Of a DNA stretch of 64,000 nt, positions 17,346-56,445 are shown piece after piece (position 1 is the stretch's first letter; every line of letters begins with the position of its first letter). Below the pieces are notes generated by a model. It had not been told where the DNA came from. It did not search any database and saw only the letters and a program-made list of their open reading frames with translations. A program made the position numbers and the translations under genes. The stretch comes from a virus. Lineage: Duplodnaviria; Heunggongvirae; Uroviricota; Caudoviricetes. The stretch is from IMG/VR virus record IMGVR_UViG_2609460125_000009; one strand, written 5' to 3'.

Positions 17346-17388
17346 CTAATACTAGAAAACAATTTGTTTAAAAAACAAAGGAAAGCAC

Positions 17389-18729
17389 ATGACCGAACTT
17401 TGCCATACAGGACGCGGGCTGTCCGAAGAGTTTGATGAAGATTTTCAGAACAGATTGACGGCCTATTTTTGTCGTGATCACGAGTTTCTTACTCGTGCTG
17501 GAGATCTGGTTGTACCTAGCCAATTTGCCAATGCGGCCAATGCCATATTGGTTAATATGGTTTCGGGCTATTACCGTATGTACAAGAGCGCGCCCTCTTC
17601 ATCTGCGATTCTGGATATGCTTAAGCGTGCGAAACGCGATAAGACTATCCGTGAGGAACTATTCGCCGATGTTGTTGCTGCGTTTAAGCGCATCCTTGCA
17701 GAAAAATTGTCTGATACCTCGTACATGGTTGACCAGGTATCAACCTTCGCAAAAAGCGTAGCGTTTGATGATGCTCTGATTAAGGCTGCTGAACTGAAAG
17801 AGAAGGGCGACTTTCAGGGGGCGATGGCAATCATGGCCAAGGTTCAGCAGATTGGATCGAACGAAGCGACCGGAATCTATGACTACTACACCTCCGCAAG
17901 TGAGCGATTGAAAGCGCGTGAATATGAGGCTTCAGAGGAGTATGTGCCAAACAGCATTACAACTGGACTCCCTCTGCTCGATAGGTTGCTGTACCAAAAA
18001 GGCTGGGCGAAGCGTGAAATGGTGCTCTTCATGGGGTTCGCTAAATCCGGTAAATCGACCGCAATGGGTGAGTTTTCCATAAACGCAACGCTTGCTGGCT
18101 ACAATGTTCTGTATCTCTCGCTGGAGGTTCACACCACCATTTTATCCGACCGTTTTGATGCAAGATTGTCGGAGACAGAAATGTCCAAGCTGGTGGAACG
18201 GCGCGATGAGGTTCATCGTAAGTTGGCAGAGTTGGGAGCCACGAAGGGGATTGGTAGTTTGTGGGTTGTTGAGCGTCCGTCAGGAAGTATGTCACCGGCA
18301 GATCTGGACCGTATGCTTAACAGCATGAAAGCCAATGGCATGGTGCCTGACATGGTTGTTGTCGACTACGCAGATTTGATGCGTGCCAGTTATGACCTTC
18401 GTGATGATCGCGCCAACATTCGTAGTATCTACACCGATTTACGTGCTCTTTATGACAAGCATAACGTTGCTGGGATCACGGCATCGCAGACAAACCGTGA
18501 AGGTGGCGCGTCAGAAGTTGCCACAATGATGCACGCTGCCGACAATATCGAAAAAGTACGTATTGCTGACCTGGTAATAACGATCAACAAAACCGAAGAA
18601 GAAGAAGCGAAAGGAGAGGCTCGTCTCTACTTTGCTGGTTCACGTAACCAGCAGGGAGGGATCAGCATTCGCGTTAAACAAAACCTCGAACAAATGCGCT
18701 TCATTGAGCGAATCTTAGACGTTACCTAA
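17389..18729 (+). CDS. DnaB-like replicative DNA helicase
   Basis: Conserved leader AAAGGAAAGCACATG; Walker A GFAKSGKST in a RecA-like C-terminal domain; LDRLL...GW motif typical of DnaB-family helicases. Confidence 0.8.
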   Translation: MTELCHTGRGLSEEFDEDFQNRLTAYFCRDHEFLTRAGDLVVPSQFANAANAILVNMVSGYYRMYKSAPSSSAILDMLKRAKRDKTIREELFADVVAAFKRILAEKLSDTSYMVDQVSTFAKSVAFDDALIKAAELKEKGDFQGAMAIMAKVQQIGSNEATGIYDYYTSASERLKAREYEASEEYVPNSITTGLPLLDRLLYQKGWAKREMVLFMGFAKSGKSTAMGEFSINATLAGYNVLYLSLEVHTTILSDRFDARLSETEMSKLVERRDEVHRKLAELGATKGIGSLWVVERPSGSMSPADLDRMLNSMKANGMVPDMVVVDYADLMRASYDLRDDRANIRSIYTDLRALYDKHNVAGITASQTNREGGASEVATMMHAADNIEKVRIADLVITINKTEEEEAKGEARLYFAGSRNQQGGISIRVKQNLEQMRFIERILDVT

Positions 18730-18810
18730 AAAATAAGCGTGGAGAACACCTCCACGCTTGATTCATTGGTGAAACAACTTTTCTTTTGCCAAACCACAAA
18801 AGAAAAACAC

Positions 18811-19992
18811 ATGAGCCTTTATGTTATATCAACATTTAGGTTGGTCACAATATTGCCTGTTAAAAGTGGAATTATCGTGAGCGAGCTGAAAGAGCTAATT
18901 ACCGAATTAGATTTTGAACAATGGTTGGATACTGAAGGTATCGTTTATCGACGTGGAGGCGTGAGTACTCGCGGTCGTGAAGTGAATATCAAGGAGTGTC
19001 CGGTATGTGGCAGCTCCAACTGGAAGGTATATTTCAATCTGACCAGTGGCGTCGGTAAATGCTTCGCTGGTGATCATCCCGAAGAGATTCAGTTCAATAA
19101 GCTGGTCTTCCTCAAGCACTACAGCGGCAAATCACGACGACAGTTCGAGGAATATGTGCAGAACGCCCTTCTTTCCCAGGGGTGGGCACCAAAGAAAGAA
19201 GAGATAGTGCTTGCAAGCACAGTCGAGTTAGAGGGACCACTTGCACTCCCTCGTCATTACGAACTTCCTATAGATGGCCGTCTTCCAGACTATCTGGTTG
19301 AACGAAACATATCGCCTGAAATGGCAAAGTATTTTGACCTACGATACTGCGTCGAAGGCAAGCACGCTTATGTAGATCCGTATACAGATCAGGTTAAAGG
19401 ACAGATATTCGATATGCGAATACTGATACCGGTTTACGATCTGGATGGGGTAATGAAGACATTTCAGGGGCGAGACATTACCGGTACAGCTGAACGTCGC
19501 TACCTCTTTCCTATGCAGCTTCCAGCTTCAGGTAAGTTTCTCTACAACGGCCATAATGCGGTCGGCAAACAGACTGTAGTTGTCTGTGAGGGGGCGTTCG
19601 ATGTTATGGGAGTTAAACGAGCTATTTTTGATGAAGAAACATTACGTGATTACGTGGAACCGATAGGAACGTTCGGGATGCATCTATCTGGTAACACCAC
19701 TCAGGATGCAGAAGATCAGTTGGGCGCGTTCCTGACGCTCAAGGCGCGTGGATTACGTAATGTGATCATGATGTGGGATAGTGAAAAGCAAGCTATACGC
19801 AACACTATGGCCGCAGCCAGGCGACTGACCAGTATTGGTCTTAATGTCAAAGTAGCATGTTTGGGCGAGGAAGGACTCGACCCAGGCGATGCAACGCCAG
19901 AACAAATTATCAAAGCCTATTATCGGGCAAAACCGTATACCAAACAGTTGGAGTTGCAAAGCAAGGTTTTGGGCATTAAGGCGCTATCGTAA
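18811..19992 (+). CDS. DNA primase (zinc ribbon plus TOPRIM)
   Basis: Start chosen at the ATG preceded by the conserved leader AAAGAAAAACACATG (the ORF is open from 18739); CPVCGSS...C..GDH zinc-binding region; TOPRIM-like VVVCEGAFDVMG and MMWDSE. Confidence 0.7.
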   Translation: MSLYVISTFRLVTILPVKSGIIVSELKELITELDFEQWLDTEGIVYRRGGVSTRGREVNIKECPVCGSSNWKVYFNLTSGVGKCFAGDHPEEIQFNKLVFLKHYSGKSRRQFEEYVQNALLSQGWAPKKEEIVLASTVELEGPLALPRHYELPIDGRLPDYLVERNISPEMAKYFDLRYCVEGKHAYVDPYTDQVKGQIFDMRILIPVYDLDGVMKTFQGRDITGTAERRYLFPMQLPASGKFLYNGHNAVGKQTVVVCEGAFDVMGVKRAIFDEETLRDYVEPIGTFGMHLSGNTTQDAEDQLGAFLTLKARGLRNVIMMWDSEKQAIRNTMAAARRLTSIGLNVKVACLGEEGLDPGDATPEQIIKAYYRAKPYTKQLELQSKVLGIKALS

Positions 19993-20067
19993 CAAGTGCC
20001 GCTAAAATAAGTAGATGATTACTTATCTTTCTGTAAGAATACTTTCATCTGTTAGCTAGGAGTTGGT

Positions 20068-30172: not shown

Positions 30173-30267
30173 ACAAAACAGCCTTAACGATAAGTAACCA
30201 CTTACGATAGATAATGATATATTTATATAAGAAGTTGAACGCTCATTAGAAAACAAAGGAAAAACGC

Positions 30268-31503
30268 ATGACTACTACTGCACTGCAAAATGAAAACAAT
30301 CCTTCTGATTACCTTGTTTGCAAGTGGTGCGGAAAATCATTTCACTATTTTAAGTCCCATGTTGCCAATGGTAATTGCGAGGGCATTCCTGAGTCAGTAA
30401 AAGATGCCGATCCTGACACCGTACTGAAAATGTACACAACACAGTTTCCAGATGAGCCAACGCTATCGAAAAAGGCACTTGATGCAATTCAAGCTAAACG
30501 TGCCGAGCAAAAAAGCGAAATGGCCAAATCATCTGGCGTGACCAGTAGCCCAGGCTACACAGGCACAGTTGAGTACAAGACAGATCTGGTCGCAGCTCAC
30601 GAACTGCTAAATGTAACGGTGAAAGAACTCGGAACAAAACGTGGGACGCCGCTCATGGTTAGCGTCAACGTCAATACGCCGTTTCCAGAGTTCGTTCCAG
30701 AAGTGAAGAAGGGATACGTATATGGCGACTTCGAACTGATCAAAGACATTTTCATGATGCTTGAACTTGGCATACCTGGCTATTTGTGGGGTCATGCAGG
30801 AACAGGCAAATCGTCATTGCCTACACAACTATGTGCTTTGCTCAATCGTCCGTTGATCCGTGCCCAACATACAGCATCAATGGAAGAGGCACATGTTACG
30901 GGGCAAATTCTGGCGCGTGATGGCTCTACGTATTTCGAGCCTGGCTTGCTTGCGCTCGCAATGAAGCATGGCTGGGTTTACCTCGCGGATGAATACGACT
31001 TTGCGTTTCCACAAATTCTTGGCGTGTATCAGCCAGTGCTGGAAGGTGAAGCGTTAGTCATCAAAGAGGCGACTCCAGAATGGCGTCGCATTACTCCGCA
31101 TGAACGGTTTGCTTTCATTGGCACTGGCAACACGAACGGATCTGGTGATGAAACCGGCTTGTACCAGGGTACAAACATCCAGAACGCCGCGAACTTTTCG
31201 CGTTTTGGCATCGTTTCGAATGTGAAATACATGAGCAAAGAGGCAGAGATCAACATGTTGATAAATGCCGGTATCGTGGATGAATACGCAGAAAAGATGG
31301 TTAAGTTTGCCGGTATCGTTCGCGATGGATACGAAGAACACCTTATCAGTCAGCCAATTGGCCCTCGTGAACTTTTGTTGTCGGCCAAGATTGGAATGAT
31401 GCGAGGCGACTTTGTGACAGGTATTGAGCGTTCTTTCATTAACAAACTCCCTTCAGCTTCTGCACAAGCGGCTCGTGAAGTTGTTCAAAAAATATTTGGT
31501 TGA
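30268..31503 (+). CDS. AAA+ ATPase of the MoxR/CobS type with N-terminal Cys-rich extension
   Basis: Conserved leader AAAGGAAAAACGCATG; Walker A GHAGTGKSS, Walker B LADEYD; N-terminal CKWCG...H...C cluster. Confidence 0.8.
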   Translation: MTTTALQNENNPSDYLVCKWCGKSFHYFKSHVANGNCEGIPESVKDADPDTVLKMYTTQFPDEPTLSKKALDAIQAKRAEQKSEMAKSSGVTSSPGYTGTVEYKTDLVAAHELLNVTVKELGTKRGTPLMVSVNVNTPFPEFVPEVKKGYVYGDFELIKDIFMMLELGIPGYLWGHAGTGKSSLPTQLCALLNRPLIRAQHTASMEEAHVTGQILARDGSTYFEPGLLALAMKHGWVYLADEYDFAFPQILGVYQPVLEGEALVIKEATPEWRRITPHERFAFIGTGNTNGSGDETGLYQGTNIQNAANFSRFGIVSNVKYMSKEAEINMLINAGIVDEYAEKMVKFAGIVRDGYEEHLISQPIGPRELLLSAKIGMMRGDFVTGIERSFINKLPSASAQAAREVVQKIFG

Positions 31504-31709
31504 TCGTGCGTAAAGGATGTTTCGGCTCTCTTATCGCTGCTTCTGAAACTGGTAAGGCTTGTCTGGTGTGTCCAGACAAGCCCGATTGTCACCAATCAGC
31601 AAAAGAAGTTGCGATTTCGATGCATGGGAAGTTCGTAGGCTTCCCAAATGACAAAATCAAAAAAACCAGAAAGGTAAAAACACATGAAGGCACTGATGGT
31701 TCGAACTGA
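31500..31709 (+). CDS. hypothetical small Cys-rich protein
   Basis: 69-aa ORF overlapping the end of the AAA+ gene and the start of the polymerase gene; coding status uncertain. Confidence 0.25.
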   Translation: MIVRKGCFGSLIAASETGKACLVCPDKPDCHQSAKEVAISMHGKFVGFPNDKIKKTRKVKTHEGTDGSN

Positions 31710-35235: not shown

Positions 35236-35505
35236 GAATTATGGCGCTTGTTGAGGAAGTCACTCCTCTTACGCACTTTGTTTTGCCATGCCGGCAGTTA
35301 GCTTCTGCCTTTGACTATTCATGCGGCAACCCCGCATTTCGCCACAATGGGCAATTCACTTTTATGGAATAAACTGGCCGTTGTGTCGATTTAATTAGCA
35401 TGGCCTTACCATGCTAATTTATTCAACTTGTACAATCCTACAAATCTATCCACTCAGGCTTACACCGTCTTCGTTATTGTAGAAATGAGGATCATCAGCG
35501 TTGAA

Positions 35506-35721
35506 TCAGCTTAGAGCAACGACATTTGCTGCTGCTGGGCCTTTAGCCCCATTCTCGATAGAGAATTCGACCTGCTGGCCTTCTTCCAAAGTGCGGAAAT
35601 TATTACTCTGAATTGCCGAAAAATGTACAAAAACATCTTTACTGCCATCAGCAGGAGAAATAAAGCCAAAGCCTTTATCAGAGTTAAACCATTTTACTAA
35701 ACCAGTCATTTTATTAGACAT
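35506..35721 (-). CDS. cspA: cold-shock protein, CspA family
   Basis: [21 protein letters not shown]...DVFVHFSAI matches the cold-shock domain RNP motifs; ATG at 35721 has an AAGGT RBS, although the ORF is open further upstream. Confidence 0.85.
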
Positions 35722-36050
35722 AGATATTACCTTCTTAATTTTGTGAGCCACATAGTGCGGCGAGAATTTGATCTGTATAGATTGGGACTTACTTAGGCAC
35801 TTAAGGAGGAGACTCACGAAGAAGGGAAATCAGAAGATAACACTGAACTGAGACTGCTTTACTAAAACTGCTTACATAAGGTCTGTCTTGCAAACCAACG
35901 ATGCTATTAACGCATACCCCTTCTTTTCATGCAACCTTTATTTTTCAAAGATAACTAATTTTTGTCACCATTGGTTTAGTAAACGTTAACGAACCAGACG
36001 ATGCCAGACACCTTTACAGAGAACAGATGCCCGCCAATTGGCGGGCATCA

Positions 36051-37585: not shown

Positions 37586-37702
37586 TTTTTGATAGATAAT
37601 AAGTAAGTACTGATCTATCATTTAACAGCTCGAAAGAGCCACGAATGAACGAAAGCCCAACGCGCATAGCGCCATCGGCCAAATCACAACAAGGAGAAAC
37701 AC

Positions 37703-38731
37703 ATGTCTAAGACATTACTTGATTTGCTTAACAAAACTCGTGAAGACATTGCCGCCAAACGTGGCAACAACGTTGATCTGACTCGCTTAAAAGACGGCGT
37801 CAACTATATCCGCATCTTCCCGAATAAAGACGACCCAAACGGTAAGTTCTTCCAGACTTTCGGTATGCACTACGTTAAGTATCAGAACGAGGAAGGTAAA
37901 GAAGCAACCAACGCTTATATTTGTGAGCAACATACTCACGGTCGCGCTTGTCAGCTATGCGAAATGGTGATGGAAGGTCGCGCTCGTCACAAGGGTAACA
38001 AAGCAATGGAAGAACGCATCGGTCAAATGCGTGCCACTCCTCGCTACCTGGTCAACGGCATTCTTTCTGCTCGTGAGGATTTCGCAGATGCTGAGAAATG
38101 CCAGTTAATCGAGCTGCCGTCTACTGTATTCGATGATATCTGCAAAGCAATCACCGAAGACATCGCTGATGATATCGGCAATCCACTGAGCAAAGAGGAA
38201 GGCTACGCATTCCTGATTAAACGTACTGGCTCTGGTCGCGATACCAAATATGACGTCTCGCCTAAGCGTAAAGTCTACAAAGGCGATATCGAAGATAAAT
38301 TCTGGAACACCCAGCATGATCTGATCGCATACGCAAATCAGGCTGATGAAACTCGTCTTCTGTCGACAGTTCGCACTATGGGTCGTCTGATTGGCATCGC
38401 TGCACCAACTGCCGCAGCATCTGCACCAGCAATTTCCTCAACCGCGAAAACATCGGCTGCGGCACTACCTGGATTTGGCTCTGTCACTGGTCATACAGAA
38501 GGAGCGACGGCTGTAGCAACCGCGCACACACCGGCTTCTGAACCAACCAGTCTGGTTGATGAAGAAATCCTCCGTGCCGTTGAAACTGAATTTAAACCAG
38601 AGGCAAGTTCCGCTGCCGTTGCCGTATCAGTCAAAGAGTCTGAAGCAGTCGCAGCGACATCTGTAGCAACCGCATCTGCGACGGAAGATGAAGGTCTGGA
38701 TGACCTACTGAGAGAGCTGGACTCTCTGTAA
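37703..38731 (+). CDS. single-stranded DNA-binding protein (phage gp32-like), with acidic C-terminal tail
   Basis: Conserved leader AAGGAGAAACACATG; Cys/His cluster CEQHTHGRACQLCEM compatible with a zinc-binding ssDNA-binding core; Ala/Ser-rich linker and acidic terminus EDEGLDDLLRELDSL. Confidence 0.55.
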   Translation: MSKTLLDLLNKTREDIAAKRGNNVDLTRLKDGVNYIRIFPNKDDPNGKFFQTFGMHYVKYQNEEGKEATNAYICEQHTHGRACQLCEMVMEGRARHKGNKAMEERIGQMRATPRYLVNGILSAREDFADAEKCQLIELPSTVFDDICKAITEDIADDIGNPLSKEEGYAFLIKRTGSGRDTKYDVSPKRKVYKGDIEDKFWNTQHDLIAYANQADETRLLSTVRTMGRLIGIAAPTAAASAPAISSTAKTSAAALPGFGSVTGHTEGATAVATAHTPASEPTSLVDEEILRAVETEFKPEASSAAVAVSVKESEAVAATSVATASATEDEGLDDLLRELDSL

Positions 38732-38740: not shown

Positions 38741-39736
38741 GTGACCAGTAAGGCGTCTACGGACGCCTTACTTTTTGGAAGGAATGTACCGGTGAATTAT
38801 CTCTTCGTAGATGGCAATAGCCTGGGTTATTACCACCAACAATCTGACAAATTGCACAACGGCGAAATGGAAGTACAGGCTGCTTTCGGCTTTGTTAAGA
38901 ACGTCCGTCGTTATGCCTCCATCCTCCATGCCCGACCTATGATTCTTTGGGATGGATTTAGTGACAAGCGTCGCGACTTTTACCCGGACTACAAAGCAAA
39001 TCGCGACGACGATCCTGATATGAAAAAGATGAAGGAAGGCTTTGCTATCCAGAAGCCATACATCCTCAAAATGATGACCGCGCTTGGAGTTACCCAACTC
39101 ATTGCAAAAGATGCAGAAGCGGATGATCTGGCCGGGCTGCTGGTATCCCGCATGGCACCGCAGCCAACCGTTGAACACATCTATCTGTTAACAGGCGATA
39201 GCGACTGGCTTCAGTTAGTTCGTGAAAACGTAAGCTGGGTAAGCCTGCGTGAAGACGCCAAAAACAAGCAGGTTAATTTTGAGCAATTTGCGGAGCTGAC
39301 AGGATTCGCTACTCCTCGCGCATTTTTGGAAGCAAAAGCATTACAAGGCGATAAATCGGACAACATTAGCGGTGTTGGTGGCATTGGTGCTGGCGGTGCG
39401 AAAGAGCTGCTGCATGAATGGGGAAGTGTCGCAACGATGGTACGCGGCATCAACGACGGCTCAATCGTGGTTGACAAAGGACGCCATAAGACCGCCTTCA
39501 ACAAACTAGCGAAGAATGCCTTCAACGAGAAAACAGGCTGTCGAATGCTCGAAGCGTTCAAGAGAAACATCACGCTAATGAACCTGATTGAGACGAAGTT
39601 TCCGCCTACCGAAATCGAAACAATCAAAGGCAATCGTGACGTGAAAGCATTCGAGCAACTGTGCTACGAGCTGAATTTCCGTTCGTTCCTTGAAGACCTT
39701 GAAGTGTTTGTTCTTCCATTCGAAAGGTATTGCTAA
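38741..39736 (+). CDS. 5'-3' exonuclease / flap endonuclease (FEN family)
   Basis: Motifs FVDGNSL, AEADDLAG, LLTGDSDWLQLV and helix-3-turn-helix GVGGIGAGGAKELL. Confidence 0.85.
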   Translation: MTSKASTDALLFGRNVPVNYLFVDGNSLGYYHQQSDKLHNGEMEVQAAFGFVKNVRRYASILHARPMILWDGFSDKRRDFYPDYKANRDDDPDMKKMKEGFAIQKPYILKMMTALGVTQLIAKDAEADDLAGLLVSRMAPQPTVEHIYLLTGDSDWLQLVRENVSWVSLREDAKNKQVNFEQFAELTGFATPRAFLEAKALQGDKSDNISGVGGIGAGGAKELLHEWGSVATMVRGINDGSIVVDKGRHKTAFNKLAKNAFNEKTGCRMLEAFKRNITLMNLIETKFPPTEIETIKGNRDVKAFEQLCYELNFRSFLEDLEVFVLPFERYC

Positions 39737-40004: not shown

Positions 40005-42344
40005 ATGGCAAAAGGAAAATCCGCACTGGCACTTGCTCTGAAAAAGAAAATCGGTAGCAACGACGAAATTCAGAAAGTAACTCATTGGATTGACACAGGC
40101 TTTCCTCCGTTAAACAAAGCTATTTCCGGTCGTTACGATGGCGGTTTCCCATGTGGTCGTATCGTAGAAGTATTCGGGCCACCAAGCGCGGGGAAATGTG
40201 TTACCGCAGACACCATGCTGCTGACGGAGCGTGGAATGGTAACAGTGAAAGAGTTGTTTGAGATTGAAGGGTACAAAGCGACATGCACTACTCGCGATGT
40301 AGAGCATAACGTTGGACTCATCAATGAAAATGGCGTGATAGAGAAGACCTCACACCTGACATGGAACAACCGTCGCAAATTCAAGCGTATTAAGCTGGCA
40401 TCAGGCGGTTATATCGAGGCTACGTTCCGTCACCCAATCCGTGTGGTTGACGACTTAGGTAATGTCGTCTGGCGACATGCTGAAAAAATCAGTGTAGGCG
40501 ACACGATTCCTTCAATGGTTGGCACACATCAATTCGGCGATCAGCACCTGGATGCCAATATCGCAAAACTGATGGGCTATTTAATTGCTGACGGATACGT
40601 GGCCTCTGAAAATTCAGTGAATTTTTCTAACACAGATCCTTTCATCAAGGATGAGTACTACCGCCTCATTTCGCTGGTATCAGACAAGATGCCAGTTACG
40701 AGAAAACATAACGGCTCGGAAGACCATGTGCTGTTTAGCAAAGAGGTGCGTTCGCTGCTTTTTAAAGAATATGGTCTGGAGTATGAGAAAGCTGCTGGCA
40801 AGCAGGTTCCGTTGAGTGTGCGTCGCGCCAATAGCGAGGCTCAAATTGCATTCCTTCGCGGCTACTTTGAGCTGGAATGCCACGTCAATGATGGTCGCTG
40901 CATTGAGGTTGTGAGCGCGAGTGGGCTGCTGCTACAGCAAATTCGCCTCATGCTCCTGAATCTGGGGATTACGTCAACTATCTCTGAAAAACACGTCGCG
41001 GGTTATGAAAATACATATTACCGGCTGTCATTCAGTGGCTCTAATTACGACCTTTTTCTGTCAACGATTGGTTTCGAATCTCCGGCACGTTTATCAGTGG
41101 CAACCAAACGGGACATTGGTTTTGACCGCACTTACTCAGGCTATGTTCCGCACATCAGCGGCTTAGTGAAATCACTCTACGAGTCGCTCACCAAGACCAC
41201 CCGTGAAGACTACGCTCTGGTAGACCACGTTATTGGCCGCGGCGATCGTGTCGGAATAGACAAACTGCGAGAAATCTATGTCTCCTTCATTGGCAGAAAG
41301 AATCGTTTTAACGAGCATCTGTTTGCACAACTGGCAGCGGTAATTGGCTCTAACTTGTTCTACGACGAAGTCGTGGCTATTGAGGAAGGTGAAGCACCAA
41401 CGTTCGACGTAGCGATGCCGGAAACACACTCTTTCTGGTCTAACGGGATTATCAGCCACAACACATTCCTTGCAACAGCAGCGATGATCTCCGCTCAAAA
41501 ACAAGATGGTCTGGCGGTATTCCTCGATCATGAAAACAGTTTTGACGTTGGCCTGGCTGTAGCCAATGGCCTGAACGCAGATGAGGATGACGGTCAGTGG
41601 GTATACAAGCAGCCAGATACCTTCGAAGACTCTGTAGAGTTGATCGGCACAATACTTAAATTGGTTCGTGATGAAGAGCTTATCCCCGAATCAGCACCTA
41701 TCTGTATCGTGGCTGACTCTCTTGCGTCTATGGTTCCGAACTCCAAAGCCGAGAAGTTCGAAAAGATGGCTGAAGGCACAGCCAAAGACAAAGATCAGCT
41801 AAACATGAACGACAATACGGCACTGGCTCGTGCGACGAGTGCGAACTTCCCTACTCTGGCTTTGTGGGCACGCAAATACAACGCCTGCATCATCTTCTTG
41901 AATCAGGTTCGCACAAAAATCGGTGTAATGTTTGGCGACCCTACTACGTCGCCAGGTGGAGATTCACCGAAGTTCTACGCTTCTGTACGTATCCGTCTTG
42001 GTGCATCGGTGATGAAGGATGGTAAAGAGAAGATCGGCCAGGACGTAGGCGCAGAATGCATCAAAAACAAAGTTGCACCACCGTATGGCAAATGCACCTG
42101 GAAATTCTACTTCGATCCTACTCGTGGCCTCGACGTTATCGAGTCGCTCGTCGAGTACATGCTGGAAGAAGGATACCTGCCAAAGAACGCCAGCGGTCGA
42201 GTAGAAATTGGTGACAAGAAATACACCAAATCACAGATCGTCGAGATGTATCGGGAGAAGCCACTAGCTGAAATCATTGCGGCTTTACAGGCAATCGACG
42301 ACCGGAGATCAAAAGACAATCCCACCGAGTCAGTAGAAGAGTAA
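40005..42344 (+). CDS. RecA-family recombinase precursor containing an intein in the Walker A motif
   Basis: N-extein ends GPPSAGK, C-extein begins TFLATAA, so splicing restores GPPSAGKTFLA; the C-extein carries RecA-like core motifs. Confidence 0.85.
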   Translation: MAKGKSALALALKKKIGSNDEIQKVTHWIDTGFPPLNKAISGRYDGGFPCGRIVEVFGPPSAGKCVTADTMLLTERGMVTVKELFEIEGYKATCTTRDVEHNVGLINENGVIEKTSHLTWNNRRKFKRIKLASGGYIEATFRHPIRVVDDLGNVVWRHAEKISVGDTIPSMVGTHQFGDQHLDANIAKLMGYLIADGYVASENSVNFSNTDPFIKDEYYRLISLVSDKMPVTRKHNGSEDHVLFSKEVRSLLFKEYGLEYEKAAGKQVPLSVRRANSEAQIAFLRGYFELECHVNDGRCIEVVSASGLLLQQIRLMLLNLGITSTISEKHVAGYENTYYRLSFSGSNYDLFLSTIGFESPARLSVATKRDIGFDRTYSGYVPHISGLVKSLYESLTKTTREDYALVDHVIGRGDRVGIDKLREIYVSFIGRKNRFNEHLFAQLAAVIGSNLFYDEVVAIEEGEAPTFDVAMPETHSFWSNGIISHNTFLATAAMISAQKQDGLAVFLDHENSFDVGLAVANGLNADEDDGQWVYKQPDTFEDSVELIGTILKLVRDEELIPESAPICIVADSLASMVPNSKAEKFEKMAEGTAKDKDQLNMNDNTALARATSANFPTLALWARKYNACIIFLNQVRTKIGVMFGDPTTSPGGDSPKFYASVRIRLGASVMKDGKEKIGQDVGAECIKNKVAPPYGKCTWKFYFDPTRGLDVIESLVEYMLEEGYLPKNASGRVEIGDKKYTKSQIVEMYREKPLAEIIAALQAIDDRRSKDNPTESVEE
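40197..41462 (+). mobile_element. intein with LAGLIDADG homing-endonuclease domain (422 aa) inside the recombinase gene
   Basis: Begins with Cys (CVTADTMLL, intein block A), ends with His-Asn before the extein Thr; internal LMGYLIADGY and FLRGYFELE motifs. Confidence 0.8.
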
Positions 42345-42348: not shown

Positions 42349-42374
42349 AAGGCGTCCACAGGACGCCTTTTTTA
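42349..42374 (+). terminator. rho-independent terminator
   Basis: GGCGTCC-ACA-GGACGCC followed by TTTTTT after the recombinase stop. Confidence 0.8.
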
Positions 42375-42437
42375 TCTCTTGAAAATATATAAGTGCTTAC
42401 TTATCATTTTTCACATAACAACCACATAGGAAAACAC

Positions 42438-42638
42438 ATGATCAAAATCTATCTATTGGCAGTAGCCACAGGCCTTTCAGTGGCTCTCATCTACGGATTA
42501 CTGGTTCCGTCGCTGATTTCTGCAAAGAGTGATTTGGCCGTCATGCTTGGAGTTCTCGTTGGTTTTGGCGCTCCAGTAATCGGTCTTATTGGTGGTCGTA
42601 AGTTTATTAACTCATTAATCAAAGCAAAGGGGAAATAA
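42438..42638 (+). CDS. small membrane protein (two predicted transmembrane helices)
   Basis: Conserved leader GGAAAACACATG; 66 aa, hydrophobic; directly upstream of the SPFH gene. Confidence 0.45.
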   Translation: MIKIYLLAVATGLSVALIYGLLVPSLISAKSDLAVMLGVLVGFGAPVIGLIGGRKFINSLIKAKGK

Positions 42639-42641
42639 GTA

Positions 42642-43487: not shown

Positions 43488-43514
43488 CAGGCGTCCAGTT
43501 GGACGCCTTTTTTA
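43488..43514 (+). terminator. rho-independent terminator
   Basis: GGCGTCC-AGTT-GGACGCC followed by TTTTTT; same stem sequence as the terminator at 42349. Confidence 0.8.
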
Positions 43515-43563
43515 TCGCAATTATCTTATTAAGAAAACAATTTGTTTAAAAGGATAAGAAAAC

Positions 43564-43989
43564 ATGACAGCTATTAAGAAACTCTACGATGCCGCAAACG
43601 TGGCTCTGGATGTTATTGATGATGAAGTAGCAAAAGGCTTTCCTGAACCTGATTGGGCGCATCAGCTACGAAACGCTATCGCAGAAATGACCCCACCAGA
43701 TCCAACCCCCGACGAGACAGACTGGCAGCGATTCATCCGTATGTACGCTCAGGAAATAGGTCCAACGCCAACGGCAGAGCAAGCAATGCTGCTGAAATAC
43801 TTCAAAGAGGCGGGGGAGGATTTACCAATTGATGACTCAGCATATTGGTTCCACTGCGCATGGCGTAAGTATGACGTGATATTCACACAAGGCATGGGGA
43901 GCAAAGATATGGTTGTGTGGCATCTACTCCATATAGACACAGCCGTTGACAGAGTTATTGAACAGTTTTTCCCTAAACAAGAAGATTGA
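43564..43989 (+). CDS. hypothetical protein
   Basis: Conserved leader AAAACAATTTGTTTAAAAGGATAAGAAAACATG; 141 aa. Confidence 0.5.
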   Translation: MTAIKKLYDAANVALDVIDDEVAKGFPEPDWAHQLRNAIAEMTPPDPTPDETDWQRFIRMYAQEIGPTPTAEQAMLLKYFKEAGEDLPIDDSAYWFHCAWRKYDVIFTQGMGSKDMVVWHLLHIDTAVDRVIEQFFPKQED

Positions 43990-44044
43990 TCGCCTATTCA
44001 TAACTACCAAAATAAGTAAACACTAACCACAAAAGGAAAAACAC

Positions 44045-44320
44045 ATGAGAGTTTTAGTTCGAATCGTTACCAGCACTGTCTATGACGCATTTCCGCTTTT
44101 TATCGTCAAAGCCGATGGCCTTAACGACGAAGAAACTGACGCGCTGATCCAGCGTACTCTTGTTGAATATACAGGTCATGACGCTGATTCAGTGATGGTT
44201 GATGATGATGGTGTTTGTTGGCATAACGGCAACTGTTGGTACGTAGAAGAGACTCAACAAATCAGTGATGAAGATGCCGCACATCTTGAGCGTATTTTAA
44301 GCATCAGCACTTTTGAGTGA
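44045..44320 (+). CDS. hypothetical acidic protein
   Basis: Conserved leader AAAGGAAAAACACATG; 91 aa. Confidence 0.5.
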   Translation: MRVLVRIVTSTVYDAFPLFIVKADGLNDEETDALIQRTLVEYTGHDADSVMVDDDGVCWHNGNCWYVEETQQISDEDAAHLERILSISTFE

Positions 44321-44360
44321 GTTTACAGTAAAATTTATATAAGTTAGTATCTACCTATCA

Positions 44361-45083: not shown

Positions 45084-45093
45084 TAGCACCAAC

Positions 45094-45573
45094 CACTGCG
45101 GTGAGTAGCCAGCTCACCGCATTCGTATCAGCTCATTATCCACTGTGGTCTGCAGTCCTCTCTTCCTACATATCTGCTAACCACTGTAGCGAGTAGACAG
45201 CCTTTCATTCGCATCAAACAACCACTATGGTGAGTATTGGAGTGAGATGTACAGCGGGTATCCACTATGGTGAGTAAGCCTTTGCTGTTTTCAGTGGATA
45301 TCCACTCGCCACAGTGGATACGCTCAAAGATGAGGGCGACAACAACCACTATAGACAGTAAATTTTCCAAGATACCCAGTGACCACTAACCTCGCAGCCC
45401 TTGTTTCATCAGTGTTAGTGATCACTAACATTTGATTCAGTATTTGCATTCTACTGCCTACAGTGGTTATCAACAGATAACGATACTCACTATAGTGGAT
45501 AGCGAATTACAGATATAAGTAAGGCTCACTACAGTGGATAGTGAGCCTTACTACTAACTACAGTGGTTGGGCT
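45094..45573. repeat. iteron-like repeat cluster (about 12 copies of CCACTrTGG / CTAyAGTGG cores in both orientations)
   Basis: Examples: ccactgtggtctg 45140, aaccactatggtgagta 45221 and 45261, cactatagtggatagcg 45488, ctacagtggata 45528; lies at the 3' side of the initiator gene. Confidence 0.6.
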
Positions 45574-46627
45574 ATTTGCGAGTCTTTGCCTTGCGCAACT
45601 CTTCGAGAAGCGCCAGTTCTTCTTTACTCAACATGACCATTTTGCCTTCTTTTTCGTCAGGCACAACGTCGATAATGTCATCTTGATTCTCATCTGGGAG
45701 GCTATATTCCGTCTCATCATTATCGATTTTTGTTGATATTTGTGCCTGGCGTAACTTTGGCCGCCTATAGTGGATGACGAAGTAGACCGAGTTTCCGCGC
45801 TTAACTTCCGTGTAATCGAGATATCCTATCTCTCGCAGCTGTTCCATAGCCTTTCTTACCGTCGCATTCTGAGTAATAGTGCGACTTGTCAGATTAAGTC
45901 TGGCGCGTAAACGGGCTAGTGATATTGGTGCCGGATCAGGCGGCAAACTTTCAATAAAAGTATAAAGCGCCTGAGCGGATTCTTTTCTTGAGAGTTCGTT
46001 TATAGCCCGGAGTTGCAGAAGAACCTTTTTGTCGAACTGGTAGAGTTCGAAAATCTTGGGATCTGCTTTCAGTTCGACCGTATCGTGCTTGACACTATAT
46101 TTTGCCGTTTGCACAAGATGCGTTACGTAAAACTCATCAGAGCCTTTGCTACGGAACGAGATGGTATTTGTGGCAATACGGCTTAGCGAACTGTCCAGGC
46201 GTTTGCGTAACTTCGCTGATGACCTGGCGGTCGGAATGCCACACAGCCTTACAAACTCAACGAACGGCAACGTGACAGTATCGCCAACGACCTTGTGTTT
46301 GGCAAACGCGTGGATTATTCCCACCCACGTTTTAAAGTCGTTATCCATATCAAGCCGAAGGCCAGAGATCCTTATGTCTTCGTACCCTTCGGCTTTTGCC
46401 AGAGACAGCTGTTTGAGTTCAGCAGAGGCATCCATAGAGACCATTTGCCCCTTTCTTCCTCTGGATGTCGATTTCAGCGTCGGAACGAAGAGGCCCAGAC
46501 GCATCAAAGCAACAGGCTGAACAGTGTTATTAGTGTTAGGAACCAACGTAACAACTTCGCCTGTCTTTTTATCTGTTTCTGAAAATGCTTCAACGATCGC
46601 TATGTTTTTATTGCCGTTTTCGCTCAT
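45572..46627 (-). CDS. replication initiator protein (RepA/Rep_3-like, iteron-binding)
   Basis: 351-aa minus-strand ORF flanked on both sides by 21-bp-spaced direct repeats; charged C-terminus; assignment rests mainly on context and overall resemblance to plasmid RepA-type initiators. Confidence 0.55.
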
Positions 46628-46672
46628 TCCAAATGTCTCTTGTTATTCGACGGCTTTGGTGGCCTTTGCTGA

Positions 46673-47300
46673 TTACAGTGGATAGTAGCACTCATCACAG
46701 CGGTTATCCTACCGTCTATAGTGGTTTTTCTCCTCTCTATAGTGGTTGCTTTGCTCCCTATAGTGGATTATTCGCTCTCTATAGTGGATATCGATCATGT
46801 CTGAAGGCAGATGGCGCAACGGTTTGAGGTGGGCGGGGATCTTATTGGGTCTTTATGGGTCTCTTTGGTTCTCTTTGTGATCTGAATTACTGGATCGGGC
46901 CTGTGGATAAAAATCAGAGGATTTCAAGAACAGGTAACTCTACTCTTCTGTGGATATTTAAGGACATAAGAATCATGACTAAGAGTAGAGTTTAAAATAT
47001 ATCTATGTATATCAGTATGTTAATGAAGAATTAAGTCATTAAGTTATCCATAAAAGACAATGTGCTCTACTCTCTACAGTGGATATATACAGCTCTCCAG
47101 AGTGGTTGTTTTACTCTTCATAGCGGTTATTCAGCTCTCTACAGAGGTTTCTTTGCTCTCCATAGTGGATGGCAACACCCTTTCAGACCAGTAACCGCAA
47201 CGGCTAGAGGCGATCGGGGATCTCTTTGGATCTTCTATTTGATCTTACTTGGGATCTCTTATTTGGATCTATCCAGTGGATAACTGGGATAAGTAAAACA
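46673..47300. promoter_or_regulatory. candidate origin of replication: two iteron arrays, DnaA boxes, AT-rich block and GATC clusters
   Basis: Direct repeats CTCTATAGTGGwT at 46714, 46735, 46756, 46777 and at 47072, 47095, 47116, 47137, 47158 (21-22 bp spacing); perfect DnaA box TGTGGATAA at 46902-46910 and 8/9 matches near 46950 and 47044; AT-rich 46920-47060; five GATC in 47216-47270. Confidence 0.6.
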
Positions 47301-47370
47301 GGCAAATGCAGATTAAGGTATGCCTAATGAGTTATCGTAGCATCGGCCAATAACTACTGAAAAAACGATT

Positions 47371-48015: not shown

Positions 48016-48269
48016 CCCTCCAGATCGTATATTGGCGTAGATAGAATCTACGCCCCCTCAAAATAGCTCTCATAGCGTTCTACAGTGATCCAGTCTTATT
48101 TTTAGTCATACAGACAAGCAAAGTTGCGCCACGATAAATAGGTATATACTTACTTATAAATTTTGTATATTAAGGCGCTCGTTTCATTCCTAACATACCG
48201 TTATGCATAGTTGTTTACCTCCTCATTGCTCTTAGAATTTGTATCAAAATAACCACAAAGGAAAAACAC

Positions 48270-49355
48270 ATGACTTTGCCATACGGCGTCATTTCTGACT
48301 GCCACTACCACAAATGGGATGCGTTCTCCACGACGAACGCTGAGGGGCTTAACTCCAGACTTGAAATACAGTTGGAAGCAACGAAAGAAGCAGCCATCGC
48401 CATGAAGAAGGCCGGTTGTACGTACATGTTGGTTGCCGGTGATACATTTCACGTCCGAGGAACTGTGTCCCCTTCTGTTTTGCATTACGTAACTGAAACG
48501 TACAAGTGGATTATCAACGAGCTTGATCTGACAGTAGTAATGCTGGCCGGTAATCACGATCTTGAAACCAACGATTCAGTATATAGCGCCAACGCAGCAG
48601 CATCGCTGAGTTCTATCGGCGTGGTAATCGTATGTGGCAAGTGCCCACACTCAATAAAAATTGGTGATGTGACTGTCCACCTGATTAGCTGGCGTAACAA
48701 TCATGCGGAGCTTATCAGCGATCTGAAAGCATTACGTAAGAGCGTAGAAGGTGACAATCATGACGTTGTTATCCATACATCCATTAACAAAGCCATTCCA
48801 ACAATGCCTGACGTCGGTATCGATGCGCAGGAGTTAAAGGATATCGGCTTTCGTCTCGTGCTTAGTGGGCATTACCACAACCACAAAGAGGTCATTCCTG
48901 GAGTTATCAGTGTCGGTGCACTGACTCATCAAAATTGGGGAGATGTTGGATCTCTGGCTGGCTACATGATCGTAAACCCGGACGGCAGTTTCAGTCACTA
49001 CGAAACCAGTGCGCCTAAATTCATTAACCTGGAAGATGATGTTGCTGATGACCAAATTCGCGGCAACTACGTGCGTTTCCGCGCCGTAATTGAGAACGAT
49101 GAAGAAGGCATTAAGTACCAGAACATCCTCAAAACAATGGGTGCAAAAGGTGTCGTGTGCAACTTCATCCGTAAGTCATCAATGATGGAAGGGACAGCCA
49201 GCACAACTGAAACCAGCAAAATCGATAGCCTGGGAGAGTCGGTATCTGCTTATTGCAAGATTGTCCACGATACTGACGGCGGATTTGATCTGAGCAAATT
49301 GGATATTTTGTGTCAGGAAATCCTCACCGAAGCGGAGAGTTCGGAGGCTGTGTGA
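48270..49355 (+). CDS. sbcD: SbcD/Mre11-like nuclease subunit (calcineurin-like phosphoesterase)
   Basis: Conserved leader AAAGGAAAAACACATG; phosphoesterase motifs DCHYH, GDTFH, GNHD, GHYH. Confidence 0.85.
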   Translation: MTLPYGVISDCHYHKWDAFSTTNAEGLNSRLEIQLEATKEAAIAMKKAGCTYMLVAGDTFHVRGTVSPSVLHYVTETYKWIINELDLTVVMLAGNHDLETNDSVYSANAAASLSSIGVVIVCGKCPHSIKIGDVTVHLISWRNNHAELISDLKALRKSVEGDNHDVVIHTSINKAIPTMPDVGIDAQELKDIGFRLVLSGHYHNHKEVIPGVISVGALTHQNWGDVGSLAGYMIVNPDGSFSHYETSAPKFINLEDDVADDQIRGNYVRFRAVIENDEEGIKYQNILKTMGAKGVVCNFIRKSSMMEGTASTTETSKIDSLGESVSAYCKIVHDTDGGFDLSKLDILCQEILTEAESSEAV

Positions 49356-49584
49356 AGCAAAGTCGTTATGGGAGCTTTCGAGACTTTGCCATCACGATGA
49401 AAAGACTTGAACGAGGCCAGACGGTGATGTTTCACAAGCCCTACCCGCCACAAGGAAATCCCGTAGCGTTTTATCTTGGAAGGTTAACAAGAAAAGGCGT
49501 ATTGAGACGCAGATCCTTCCCGGCGCATACGGAGTTCAGATTGAAAGAAGGCCAAAAGCTAACACACGGTATCAGAGGTGTTAT

Positions 49585-52234: not shown

Positions 52235-52243
52235 GGAGACTAT

Positions 52244-52813
52244 ATGAGTAAAAAAATCAGCGTAGTTGGTGTTGATCCCTCTATGAGCAACTTTGGGCTT
52301 GCTGTGGGCACTTTAGACCTTGAAACGGACGAACTTGAGATTCACGGCCTTACTCTTGTTGAGACTAAAGCGGGGAGTAACAAAAAGACCGTTCGTGTGA
52401 ACAGTGACGATCTGCGCCGTGCCAGTGAAATATGGCGTGTTGCGAAGCCAATCATTGATAAGGCGAATATGGTTTTTTGTGAACTACCGGTTGGGAGCCA
52501 AAACTCTCGTTCGCAGACGTCTTACGGTATTTGTATCGGTGTACTTGCGTGTGTGGATAAGCCATTGATCCAGGTCACTCCAAACGAAATCAAGCATTTT
52601 GTTGGCAATAAACTTACTACATCGAAAGAAGAGATTATCCAGTGGGCTACGAAAAAACACCCTAAAGCACCGTGGCTGCGTCGTAAGCAATCTGGACAGG
52701 ATGTTCTCGTGAACAAAAACGAACATTTGGCTGATGCGGTGGCTGCCATCCATACCGGTATGCAAACAGATCAGTTTCGCCAGGTGCGCGATGTTCTCAA
52801 GTCTCTCATTTGA
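52244..52813 (+). CDS. RuvC-like Holliday junction resolvase
   Basis: N-terminal VVGVDPS...FGLAV and C-terminal HLADAVA motifs consistent with the RuvC catalytic acidic residues. Confidence 0.7.
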   Translation: MSKKISVVGVDPSMSNFGLAVGTLDLETDELEIHGLTLVETKAGSNKKTVRVNSDDLRRASEIWRVAKPIIDKANMVFCELPVGSQNSRSQTSYGICIGVLACVDKPLIQVTPNEIKHFVGNKLTTSKEEIIQWATKKHPKAPWLRRKQSGQDVLVNKNEHLADAVAAIHTGMQTDQFRQVRDVLKSLI

Positions 52814-52886
52814 TCTCATTGATAGGTAAGTGCTTATCTATTAACATGGGCCACTAAATATAGTGGCCCTCTTTATTTGGTGATAC

Positions 52887-55202: not shown

Positions 55203-55207
55203 CATAT

Positions 55208-55235
55208 GGTGGGGTATATCCCCACCTTATCTTTG
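55208..55235 (+). terminator. rho-independent terminator
   Basis: GGTGGGG-TATAT-CCCCACC followed by TTATCTTT after the nrdA stop. Confidence 0.65.
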
Positions 55236-55302
55236 ATTTGTAAGCCTTGTTTAAACACATAAGATAACAACTTGTTTAAACACATCAAAAAAGGAAAAAC
55301 AC

Positions 55303-56445
55303 ATGTCATATTCAACGTTCCGTTTGGGTGCTAATGATGCAACCAAAGAGCCTATGTTCCTCGGACAATCTGTCAACGTGGCACGTTACGATCAGCAAAA
55401 ATACCGTGATTTTGAAAAGTTGATTGAACGTCAATTGTCTTTCTTCTGGCGGCCGGAAGAAGTTGATATTTCGAGTGATCGTATCGACTTCAACACGAAG
55501 CTGCGGGACCACGAACGTCACATTTTTCTGAGCAATCTCCGTTATCAAACGTTACTCGATTCAGTTCAGGGACGTAGCCCAAATGCAACGCTTCTGCCGC
55601 TTATCTCTATTCCTGAACTGGAAACGTGGGTTGAAACATGGTCTTTCTCTGAGACTATCCATAGCCGCAGCTACACCCACATTATTCGTGGCATGGTGGA
55701 CGATCCGAGTATTGTTTTTGACGGTATTGTTACGGATGAAGAAATCATCAACCGAGCGATCAGTATCTCTGCTGAATATGACAGGCTTTATGGGATGACC
55801 TGCGAGCGCCAGTCGTTAGGTGAGAAAGAGTTTGAACGTCTGTACGTAAATGAATATGGCTGGGAGCCATACCCTTTGCACCGTCAGCTTTTCCGCACGT
55901 TGGTGTCCATTAATGCGCTTGAGGCGATCCGTTTCTATGTAAGTTTTGCATGTACGTTTGCCTTTGGCGAACGGAAGTTGCTTGAGGGTAACACCAAAAT
56001 TATGCGCTTTATTGCCCGTGATGAAGCTCTGCATTGCGAAGGAACTGAACGCATGATCCGCTTCATGCGTACCGGTCGCGAAGGCTTATTGTGGAAAGAG
56101 ATTGCTGCTGATGAAGAAAACGTCATTTACGACACCATGAAATCAGTCGCCGAACAAGAAATGAACTGGGCAGACTATCTCTTCAAAGACGGTTCGATGA
56201 TTGGTTTAAACGCGGATATTCTGAAGACCTATGTAAAATACCGCACCAATCTGGCTATGAATCGTCTTGGCCTGAAGGCTTTATTTCCAGAAGTTACCAC
56301 AGATCCGCTGGTCTGGATGAACAAGTGGTTGTTAACCGACACACTGCAAATTGCACCACAAGAGGCAGAGCAAAGCACATATCTGGTAGGTCAGATCGAT
56401 TCTACCGTGGATAAGGCTTCTCTAAGCCAGTTTGCAGACCTGTAA
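55303..56445 (+). CDS. nrdB: ribonucleoside-diphosphate reductase class Ia beta subunit
   Basis: Conserved leader AAAGGAAAAACACATG; collinear with E. coli NrdB as I recall it ([30 protein letters not shown] motifs). Confidence 0.9.

Follow-up and report, generated by a model that had tools for sequence, protein, structure and literature searches.

A class-specific start-codon leader and two dispersed palindromes as candidate independent cis-elements in an SSU5-like phage-plasmid

What does it mean that genes for replication, recombination and nucleotide metabolism in a phage-plasmid begin with nearly the same sequence? The question is raised by a 64-kb stretch of viral DNA, here called the window, whose closest record is Escherichia phage Cyrano (OV696614.1; 98% identity), an SSU5-like phage-plasmid of E. 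coli LF82; Salmonella phage SSU5 is ~80% identical to the window. A first-pass annotation of this DNA had described a shared leader on at least ten genes, several of them preceded by a palindromic box, and had read the arrangement as coordinated translational control or a phage-specific promoter class. We consider it rather probable that these are independent cis-elements, the leader acting as a translation initiation module, the box as a DNA operator and a third palindrome as the operator of a repressor, with the steps of binding, transcription and expression inferred from sequence.

The leader follows the pattern (A)AAGGA, an A-run and (A/G)CAC directly before ATG, set inside a weakly folding tract of 20-30 nt that consists almost only of A and C around AAGGA. 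Its consensus in the window is (A)AAGGA-A(2-5)-(A/G)CAC-ATG, the A-run being put at 5-8 nt in the description that goes with our preferred explanation. Nine genes carry it, each the first cistron past an intergenic gap: those for the helicase, the primase, a CobS-like protein, DNA polymerase III (Pol III) alpha, a gp32-like single-stranded DNA-binding protein (SSB), a membrane protein, a 91-aa open reading frame (ORF), SbcD and NrdB. The string AAAGGAAAAACACATG is exact at 44032, 48257 and 55290 and has 1-2 mismatches at 18798, 30255, 31671 and 37690; all seven copies lie on the + strand and end in a start codon, against a chance expectation of 0.09. The helicase gene at 17389 (..AAAGGAAAGCACATG) and the gene at 42438 (..TAGGAAAACACATG, one A shorter) are also members. 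With a position matrix built from these nine sites the members score at least 24.6 bits and the next-best site in the window 15.7, a match by construction in which the informative quantity is the gap to that next-best site. The degenerate string AA[AG]C[AG]CATG occurs ten times on the + strand, which holds nearly all window genes, and never on the – strand, and nine of the ten occurrences are gene starts. An unbiased repeat search recovered the leader as families D2-D4, listed right behind the repA iterons. The ten start coordinates given in the first-pass annotation are all correct; nine of its leaders stand by matrix and strand bias, and the tenth, at 43564, is a weak variant without CAC that the matrix scan missed.

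The members are not spread evenly over the gene map. The annotated order begins with tail and lysis genes, a toxin-antitoxin pair, parA, helicase, primase and ligase, continues through tRNAs, integrase and repressor, CobT/CobS-like genes, Pol III alpha, hicAB and uvsY, passes to the gp32-like SSB gene, exonuclease, recA, several small genes and repA with its iterons, and ends with sbcCD, nrdAB, mazG, thyX, a DHFR gene and dam. Scanning positions 1-13000 with the matrix returned no leader.

Orthologues in SSU5 (nrdB, the membrane protein gene and cobS) retain GGA(A/G)A(2-5)CACATG despite differing flanks, and between SSU5 and the window the length of the A-run varies while CAC stays fixed to ATG. 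Upstream columns at 80 related loci have an entropy of 0.91 bits at -40..-21, 0.78 at -20..-9 and 0.40 at -8..-1. For a more distant comparison we used the syntenic Klebsiella plasmid pKSB1_9A_3, whose orthologous proteins are 35-80% identical to those of the window. Over nine orthologous pairs, ungapped identity rises from 0.35 (-50..-21) through 0.51 (-20..-9) to 0.86 (-8..-1). Gene starts with ACAAAGGAAA(A/G)CACATG number 21 in pKSB1_9A_3, whose + strand has 30 occurrences of the pattern and whose other strand has one, and SSU5 has the leader at ~13 gene starts. Among the late and structural starts examined, the major capsid gene included, none carries it (0/17 in SSU5 and 0/17 in pKSB1_9A_3). 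Spacing is also uniform within a genome: the leader spacer is 6 nt in 15 of 17 pKSB1_9A_3 leaders, and the mode in the window is 7. Individual genes change their status between clades, cobT and uvsY bearing a leader elsewhere and not in the window, and recA bearing one in pKSB1_9A_3. Judged from these alignments, the leader is under purifying selection across the family and is gained and lost repeatedly at individual genes.

Uniformity of this kind could also arise by copying. The leader would then have no sequence-specific function past its Shine-Dalgarno (SD) sequence, and recombinational copying and homogenization of cassettes, as with T4-type promoter/stem-loop cassettes, would have kept the copies alike. 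Paralogous leaders are indeed similar over 20-37 nt (AACCACAAAGGAAAAACAC; family D4), near-duplicate terminators stand ahead of two neighboring modules (42351 and 43490), the gene content between modules differs between Cyrano and SSU5, and spacer length is uniform inside a genome and shifted between genomes. However, homogenization alone does not explain last 8 nt that are 86% identical across lineages with 35% identical flanks, the examined structural genes never acquire the motif, and CAC is fixed to ATG at A-runs of varying length. We regard copying as an improbable explanation.

A conserved, start-anchored sequence might be nothing more than the strongest ribosome site that the genome offers. 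The predicted cost of opening -18..+13 is lower for leader genes than for others (5.9 vs 9.3 kcal/mol; Mann-Whitney p=0.0016). Being merely the strongest site is nonetheless disfavored as an account of the leader, since capsid and other late genes lack it; because no examined structural gene has it, we take the leader to be class-specific rather than simply the best ribosome site. We conclude, by analogy with the start-associated sequences (SAS) of mycobacteriophages, that the leader would be a class-specific translation start signal. As an RNA-level initiation module anchored to the start codon, it would present AAGGA as the SD, then the A-run, then (A/G)CAC directly before AUG, in an A/C tract predicted to be unable to pair with itself. 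At the head of nine gap-following genes in the replication, recombination and nucleotide-metabolism part of the genome, it would give its genes a uniform, open ribosome-loading site, and it could serve as a common handle for class-wide control of translation, because its non-SD bases are invariant and confined to one gene class. Of the two interpretations in the first-pass annotation, coordinated translational control would agree with a leader that is start-anchored, SD-containing, strand-specific, weakly folding, conserved and confined to non-structural genes. Reading the leader as a promoter class is not supported: it follows a TAAGTA..TACTTA palindrome with a -10-like element, terminator hairpins, the box or a short gap, and since these upstream arrangements differ it is not tied to one promoter type. 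Cleavage of the leader by MazF (ACA) or HicA is speculation. In practice the leader marks true start codons and is useful in annotation, as for the primase below.

The box is a dyad of the form GAAAACAA-N-TTGTTTTC. Its 16-mer AAACAATTTGTTTAAA is exact at 17357 and 43535, and the core AAACAAnTTGTTT is exact also at 14427, before parA; copies with one mismatch lie at 28032 and 55265. The box had been recognized correctly at the first two sites in the first-pass annotation, with positions (17351 and 43533) that are 6 and 2 nt off; its variant at 28033 is the one-mismatch copy at 28032, and what it gave as two boxes at 55245 are two TTGTTTAAACAC repeats, at 55247 and 55272, of which the palindrome includes only the second. 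The copy at 14427 upstream of parA had been missed. Only two of the nine leaders (17389 and 55303) have an adjoining box, so that leader and box do not form one unit, and most boxes precede ribosome-binding sites other than the leader, with palindromes ranging from 6-1-6 to 8-1-8.

Relatives supply enough copies to fix the geometry of the box. SSU5 has 11 exact box cores, mostly at 80-95 kb, past the region homologous to the window, and there are 11 further copies in the 3′ part of Cyrano and 19 in pKSB1_9A_3. A well-formed module reads TGnGATAAT, ~13 nt (AACACCAAYAAGA), AAACAAnTTGTTT, AAGGAG, ~6 nt and ATG. A decent -10 accompanies 21 copies; it stands 12-14 nt upstream of the box in 15 of these, at exactly 13 nt in 10, and often comes with TGn. 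Some boxes are paired 51 bp apart (88319/88370 and 93662/93713 in SSU5, 93114/93165 in Cyrano, 99940/99991 in pKSB1_9A_3). Across 36 instances from the window, SSU5 and the 3′ part of Cyrano, the center base is random (T11/G9/C8/A8) and 76 of 78 half-site deviations are uncompensated. The box thus has the dyad, the conserved half-sites, the free center and the uncompensated changes of a DNA operator for a dimeric repressor. An RNA hairpin was rejected on the 76 of 78 uncompensated deviations and on a 1-nt center too small to serve as a loop.

The remaining part of the earlier proposal, that the box or the leader defines a phage-specific promoter class in which the TTGTTTAAA box acts as the -10, is in our judgment very improbable. 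The box does precede many genes in one orientation relative to them, and a canonical sigma-70 scan finds few promoters in box and leader regions. The same geometry nevertheless makes the box unlikely as a -10 element: in relatives an extended -10 of the TGnGATAAT type, conserved in most well-formed modules, usually precedes the box by 12-14 nt, and some boxes are joined by another copy 51 bp further upstream. Many modules have their ATG only 12 nt past the box, which leaves no room for a transcription start and an SD, and the leader is found behind several upstream arrangements. A Pfam scan of 30 proteins (20 from the window and 10 from Cyrano) found no RNA polymerase, sigma factor, RegA or CsrA.

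The distance from the -10, the 51-bp pairs, the random center and the uncompensated half-sites together indicate that the box is a double-stranded DNA operator of a dimeric protein, placed over the transcription start, and it is on these grounds that we read it as a repressor operator. Where a promoter is recognizable, the box would span roughly +5 to +21; with an auxiliary copy 51 bp upstream at some sites, its occupancy would block initiation or early elongation. For helicase and nrdB, the boxes may lie within longer transcripts and act there. RNA from the replication genes stays at background in the LF82 lysogen, which is consistent with transcriptional repression through operators.

Several observations weigh against this combined picture of leader and box. 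The family members are phylogenetically related, and the entropy and identity comparisons therefore draw on non-independent samples. A generic demand for an efficient ribosome site, taken alone, leaves the near-invariant CAC at -3..-1 unexplained. The primase leader is predicted to be folded, at 14.2 kcal/mol, and low structure is thus not universal among leaders. A clear extended -10 accompanies just one of the window boxes, that of cobT; those of helicase and nrdB have no recognizable -10 at the canonical distance. A scan of 14-33 kb for sigma-70 promoters and terminators was unenriched, with 15 promoter-like sites vs 29.7 in shuffles, and because this is below shuffled sequence our promoter assignments rest on geometry kept in relatives.

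If the leader is a handle, which protein might hold it? Among the 30 scanned proteins the sole regulators were a weak helix-turn-helix (HTH) match in the repressor at 27115-27501 and a FljA-type protein. Searches with RegA and CsrA by tblastn against the window and SSU5 gave only noise (E>4; for RegA E>6, in what is a weak test). The Cyrano protein CYRAN_114 matches PF03614 (repressor of phase-1 flagellin) at E=1e-80. Its gene, at 100780-101301 (–) of OV696614.1, corresponds to L086:21784-22302 and to SSU5_121 (96900-97415, –); it lies outside the 64-kb window, and its presence in this genome is deduced from the 98% identity to Cyrano. The protein is predicted to have two tandem Hfq-like Sm domains and is ~40% identical to chromosomal FljA, from which it forms a separate subfamily. 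The predicted structure has no recognizable double-stranded DNA-binding domain, and the PDB holds no solved structure of the FljA family.

FljA-type proteins block translation of fliC mRNA (PMC2652032; bioRxiv 10.1101/2025.10.27.684867), and for repression of fliC by FljA the former cites Bonifield & Hughes 2003 and Yamamoto & Kutsukake 2006. The FljA-type gene is a core gene of the phage-plasmid family: it is present in 12 of 12 related phage records and in 831 plasmid records (Klebsiella 341, Escherichia 229, Enterobacter 92, Yersinia 62, Salmonella 60), and the family SSB has a closely similar spread over genera (Klebsiella 347, Escherichia 224, Enterobacter 92, Yersinia 63, Salmonella 49). 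CYRAN_114 is transcribed in the LF82 lysogen, modestly, with ~2x background in LB and more under other conditions. We take K. pneumoniae and Y. pestis to be non-flagellate, so that repression of host flagellin cannot explain conservation of the gene in them.

We weighed whether the leader is the RNA operator of this FljA-type protein (CYRAN_114, SSU5_121) as a translational repressor. In the plasmid state the protein would prevent translation of leaky mRNAs for replication and recombination, or it would silence them late, in a regulon like that of T4 RegA but with an unrelated protein. The PF03614 match and the known block of fliC translation, the retention of a core gene in hosts taken as non-flagellate and its transcription in the lysogen all fit, as do the class restriction, the invariant non-SD bases and the uniform spacing within a genome, which would suit recognition by a factor. 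The initiation region of Salmonella fliC, AAGGAAAAGATCATG, moreover matches the leader at 12 of 15 positions. Set against this, the SD region AAGGAAAA of that leader is also carried by fljB, which is not known to be repressed by FljA, so that AAGGAAAA is unlikely to be what FljA recognizes; the likeness between the phage leader and the fliC leader of E. coli is poor; and the leader is almost unchanged in pKSB1_9A_3, although the FljA homologue there is only 36% identical. The phage protein is itself only ~40% identical to chromosomal FljA, and it may still have an anti-flagellin role in motile hosts. Aligning the fliC leaders of 10 genomes (Salmonella, Citrobacter and relatives) delimits no FljA site, those of Salmonella and Citrobacter being nearly identical. 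We consider the leader unlikely to be the target of this protein, which is a plausible translational regulator and a candidate.

The box could be its target instead. By analogy with the 5′ untranslated region of fliC, the box would be read as RNA in a transcribed 5′ untranslated region beside the SD, a proposal to which we assign little probability. The Salmonella fliC leader has CATCAAGTTGTAA ~20 nt before AUG, a match at 9 of 13 positions to AAACAAGTTGTTT, and the two share the 8-mer CAAGTTGT directly upstream of the SD, for which we put the chance roughly at 2%; most boxes, too, end 0-9 nt ahead of the SD. Yet the dyad, the random center and the uncompensated half-sites point to a dimeric binder of double-stranded DNA, copies 51 bp upstream lie outside the presumed transcript, and the E. 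coli fliC leader has no good box match. The absence of a recognizable double-stranded DNA-binding domain from the modeled protein also counts against a role for it at the box. In its general form, co-option of a tandem-Sm, Hfq-like FljA paralogue as the family's core regulator of 10-20 leader genes, by way of leader or box RNA, is doubtful. If true, it would amount to a circuit of the RegA kind run by an unrelated protein, and to the first mechanistic explanation for an SAS-type motif.

The third element, TAAGTAnnTACTTA (ideal form ATAGGTAAGT.ACTTACCTAT), bears on the transcriptional side of the preferred reading. Its ~16 window copies, found as repeat families D7, D15 and D19 in the unbiased search, are almost all intergenic; they occupy almost every intergenic region without a box and overlap -10-like elements. 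One copy is part of TTGAAA-N17-TATCAT ahead of the 42438 gene, an arrangement kept in 24 distinct family variants. In pKSB1_9A_3 there are more than 25 copies, some between structural genes. A copy precedes the gene of the HTH repressor, whose Cyrano homologue CYRAN_45 is expressed in the lysogen, and on this basis the third palindrome is probably the operator of that repressor (27115-27501) and the main lysogeny operator. At 16596, 37154 and 44360, genes start 2-6 nt past the palindrome without an SD at the usual spacing, as in TAAGTTAGTATCTACCTATC-ATG, which is kept in 24 variants. The 44360 gene, with TTTACA-17-TAGTAT upstream, may have a leaderless or nearly leaderless mRNA.

How does this arrangement compare with known systems? 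By its form, the closest analogue of the leader is the SAS/extended-SAS system of Cluster K mycobacteriophages, whose function was still unverified in 2025 (PMC3203893, 2011; PMC12699233, 2025 survey); it is an analogue of that system and not a member. In both, a short asymmetric motif includes the ribosome-binding site, lies a few bases before the start codon of ~10-20 genes per genome, keeps a single orientation, falls mostly outside the structural module and is kept at orthologous genes across the cluster, with a subset preceded by an inverted-repeat element. The leader thus has the SAS form and the SAS position outside the structural module, but its consensus (AAAGGAAAAACAC) is unrelated to that of Cluster K (GGGATAGGAGCCC), and host phylum and phage lineage differ. 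Extended SAS is not found here: it consists of two 17-bp imperfect inverted repeats with a 4-13 bp spacer, whereas the box is a single palindrome of 13-17 bp that can stand apart from the leader and has different partners in different lineages.

In the T4 RegA regulon, one protein recognizes A-rich initiation regions at or around the AUG of many early mRNAs and shuts them off jointly, its sites being U-rich and without a tight consensus. The likeness lies in replication and nucleotide-metabolism genes with stereotyped A-rich initiation regions, regulation being hypothetical here; the difference is that neither tblastn against the window and SSU5 nor the scan of 30 proteins by Pfam gave a RegA match. 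With FljA/fliC the family shares a PF03614 protein, and the fliC leader has the AAGGAAAA SD region with CAAGTTGT just upstream, whereas the phage-plasmid protein belongs to a separate subfamily in hosts taken as non-flagellate. In the phage-plasmid P1, C1 operators, asymmetric 17-mers, are scattered at a dozen or more promoters, including that of a DnaB-like helicase operon. The dispersal of an operator around a phage-plasmid genome, a DnaB-like helicase promoter included, is similar; here there are two unrelated palindromic families (the box and TAAGTAnnTACTTA), and the phage lineage is unrelated. Felix O1-like phage Mordin, also enterobacterial, has a 26-bp start-proximal repeat upstream of the start of 8 genes, which its authors likened to SAS (PMC4611695); its sequence differs (CCAACAATCCTAAACTGGAGAATCTA), and it was seen in one phage without a family-wide analysis.

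Neither motif string occurs in any paper in the searchable literature, where we also found no regulation analysis for the SSU5-type family and no promoter or operator study of SSU5 or Cyrano; in searchable papers, leader and box look undescribed. Rfam 15, run on the whole window, matched neither. The three dispersed motifs would be the first cis-regulatory map of the family, comprising two operator families and a class-specific translation start signal. SSU5/pHCM2/pMT1-type phage-plasmids are common in Enterobacteriaceae and include S. Typhi and Y. pestis plasmids, and ~800 PLSDB plasmids have the family SSB or the FljA-type gene. Phage-plasmids are reported to carry resistance genes (PMC9600943). 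The role of SAS has been open since 2011, and an SSU5-type system offers a tractable E. coli model.

Table 1. Leader, box, third-motif and hairpin features in the window.
Feature	Position	Strand	Sequence and remarks
Leader, DnaB-like helicase	17367..17391, ATG 17389	+	TTTAAAAAACAAAGGAAAGCACATG; core identical in SSU5 and pKSB1_9A_3
Leader, primase N-terminal extension	18789..18813, ATG 18811	+	CCAAACCACAAAAGAAAAACACATG
Leader, CobS-like AAA ATPase	30246..30270, ATG 30268	+	..AACAAAGGAAAAACGCATG
Leader, DNA polymerase III alpha	31662..31686, ATG 31684	+	..CAGAAAGGTAAAAACACATG
Leader, T4 gp32-like SSB	37681..37705, ATG 37703	+	..CACAACAAGGAGAAACACATG
Leader, small membrane protein	42416..42440, ATG 42438	+	..CCACATAGGAAAACACATG
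Leader, 91-aa hypothetical protein	44023..44047, ATG 44045	+	CTAACCACAAAAGGAAAAACACATG
Leader, SbcD-like nuclease	48248..48272, ATG 48270	+	AATAACCACAAAGGAAAAACACATG; compared in SSU5 and pKSB1_9A_3
Leader, ribonucleotide reductase beta (nrdB)	55281..55305, ATG 55303	+	CACATCAAAAAAGGAAAAACACATG; compared in SSU5 and pKSB1_9A_3
Weak leader variant, DUF7238 protein	43548..43566, ATG 43564	+	AAAAGGATAAGAAAACATG; no CAC, missed by matrix scan
Primase hairpin	18781..18804	+	UUCUUUUG / CAAAAGAA; sequesters weak SD; predicted opening 14.2 kcal/mol, outlier among leader genes
Nested hairpin, SSB 5′ leader	37655..37679	+	GCC..GCGC-AUA-GCGC..GGC; unstructured leader follows
Box, upstream of parA	14425..14441	.	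GAAAACAAGTTGTTTCA; SSU5 equivalent site at 30449
Box, 19 nt ahead of helicase ATG	17355..17371	.	GAAAACAATTTGTTTAA; no convincing -10 at canonical distance; kept in pKSB1_9A_3 at 40838
Box, degenerate left half, upstream of CobT-like gene	28030..28046	.	GTAAATAATTTGTTTTC; extended -10 TGCTACATT at 28011-28019
Box before DUF7238 gene, past terminator 43490-43513	43533..43549	.	GAAAACAATTTGTTTAA
Box, 1 mismatch, upstream of nrdB	55263..55279	.	GATAACAACTTGTTTAA; half-site repeat TTGTTTAAACAC at 55247-55258 (family D18)
Third motif in sigma-70-like promoter	42379..42407, copy at 42390	+	TTGAAA-ATATA-TAAGTGCTTACTTA-TCAT; covers spacer and -10 TATCAT
Third-motif core	27533..27546, copy at 27535	.	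GGTAAGTGCTTACC; ~30-45 nt upstream of HTH repressor gene (27115-27501, –)
Third motif	30191..30204	.	TAAGTAACCACTTA; upstream of CobS-like leader gene
Third motif	37600..37613	.	TAAGTAAGTACTGA; directly before -10-like TATCAT of SSB promoter
Third motif	48139..48152	.	TAGGTATATACTTA; ~120 nt upstream of sbcD
Third motif	57533..57546	.	TAAGTAATTACTTA; upstream of thyX
Further third-motif starts	6446, 11830, 16578, 20008, 23530, 37135, 44340, 52827, 63152

At the cobT site, where the window box has a degenerate left half, other family members have the full GAAAACAAATTGTTTTC.

Two leader genes have structured 5′ regions. Public records place the primase start ~66 nt downstream of the leader ATG, which in the window shares its reading frame. 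In SSU5 (35837-35908) this ATG begins an upstream ORF of 23 codons, whose end overlaps the annotated primase start as ATGA. The complementary segments of the primase hairpin are also present in SSU5 and pKSB1_9A_3. The starts annotated for the primase in public records are probably incomplete or wrong. At 21323-21350, inside the gene at 20906-21388, there is a leader-like sequence, GAAGAAACAACAAAAGAAACACATG, in a different frame from the ligase start at 21385; in its SSU5 counterpart, at 39590, the ATG opens a 12-codon ORF, and this ATG may belong to a short coupling ORF ahead of the ligase gene.

The SSB 5′ leader (37628-37679) consists of a GNRA-capped hairpin and a nested GCC/GCGC hairpin with one compensatory pair, followed by the A/C tract, a layout that recalls the autoregulatory operator of T4 gene 32. 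The nested hairpin has 10 predicted pairs, with the inner pair at columns 42/50 changing from C-G to U-A in 3 of 12 sequences, and it is absent at the pKSB1_9A_3 orthologue.

Elsewhere in the window, the terminator hairpins at 42351-42373 and 43490-43513 (GGCGTCCA..GGACGCCTTTTTT), ahead of neighboring promoter/leader modules, are nearly identical. They flank small genes that differ between Cyrano and SSU5, which suggests cassette-style exchange. RepA iteron arrays at 45088-45570 and 46668-47175, with the core CTATAGTGGAT in a 21-bp register, flank repA (45572-46627, –). The Rfam search matched a cspA thermoregulator (185.7 bits) at 35481-35899 (–), with a CspA-like cold-shock gene (ATG 35709, –), in an 848-nt gap past the polymerase gene; the corresponding Cyrano interval is without an annotated feature. 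It also matched three tRNA genes at 24295-24538, in a 1.7-kb gap past the gene at 23228, where the homologous Cyrano region is annotated with tRNA-Asn, tRNA-Thr and tRNA-Ser. Finally, a 56-nt element composed of GCCTGCTTCTG, an AT-rich palindrome and CGGAAGCAGG occurs twice, at 16433-16488 and 63798-63853, and pieces of it recur where the Cyrano record ends and where the SSU5 record begins. The element may serve as a site for packaging, resolution or partition.

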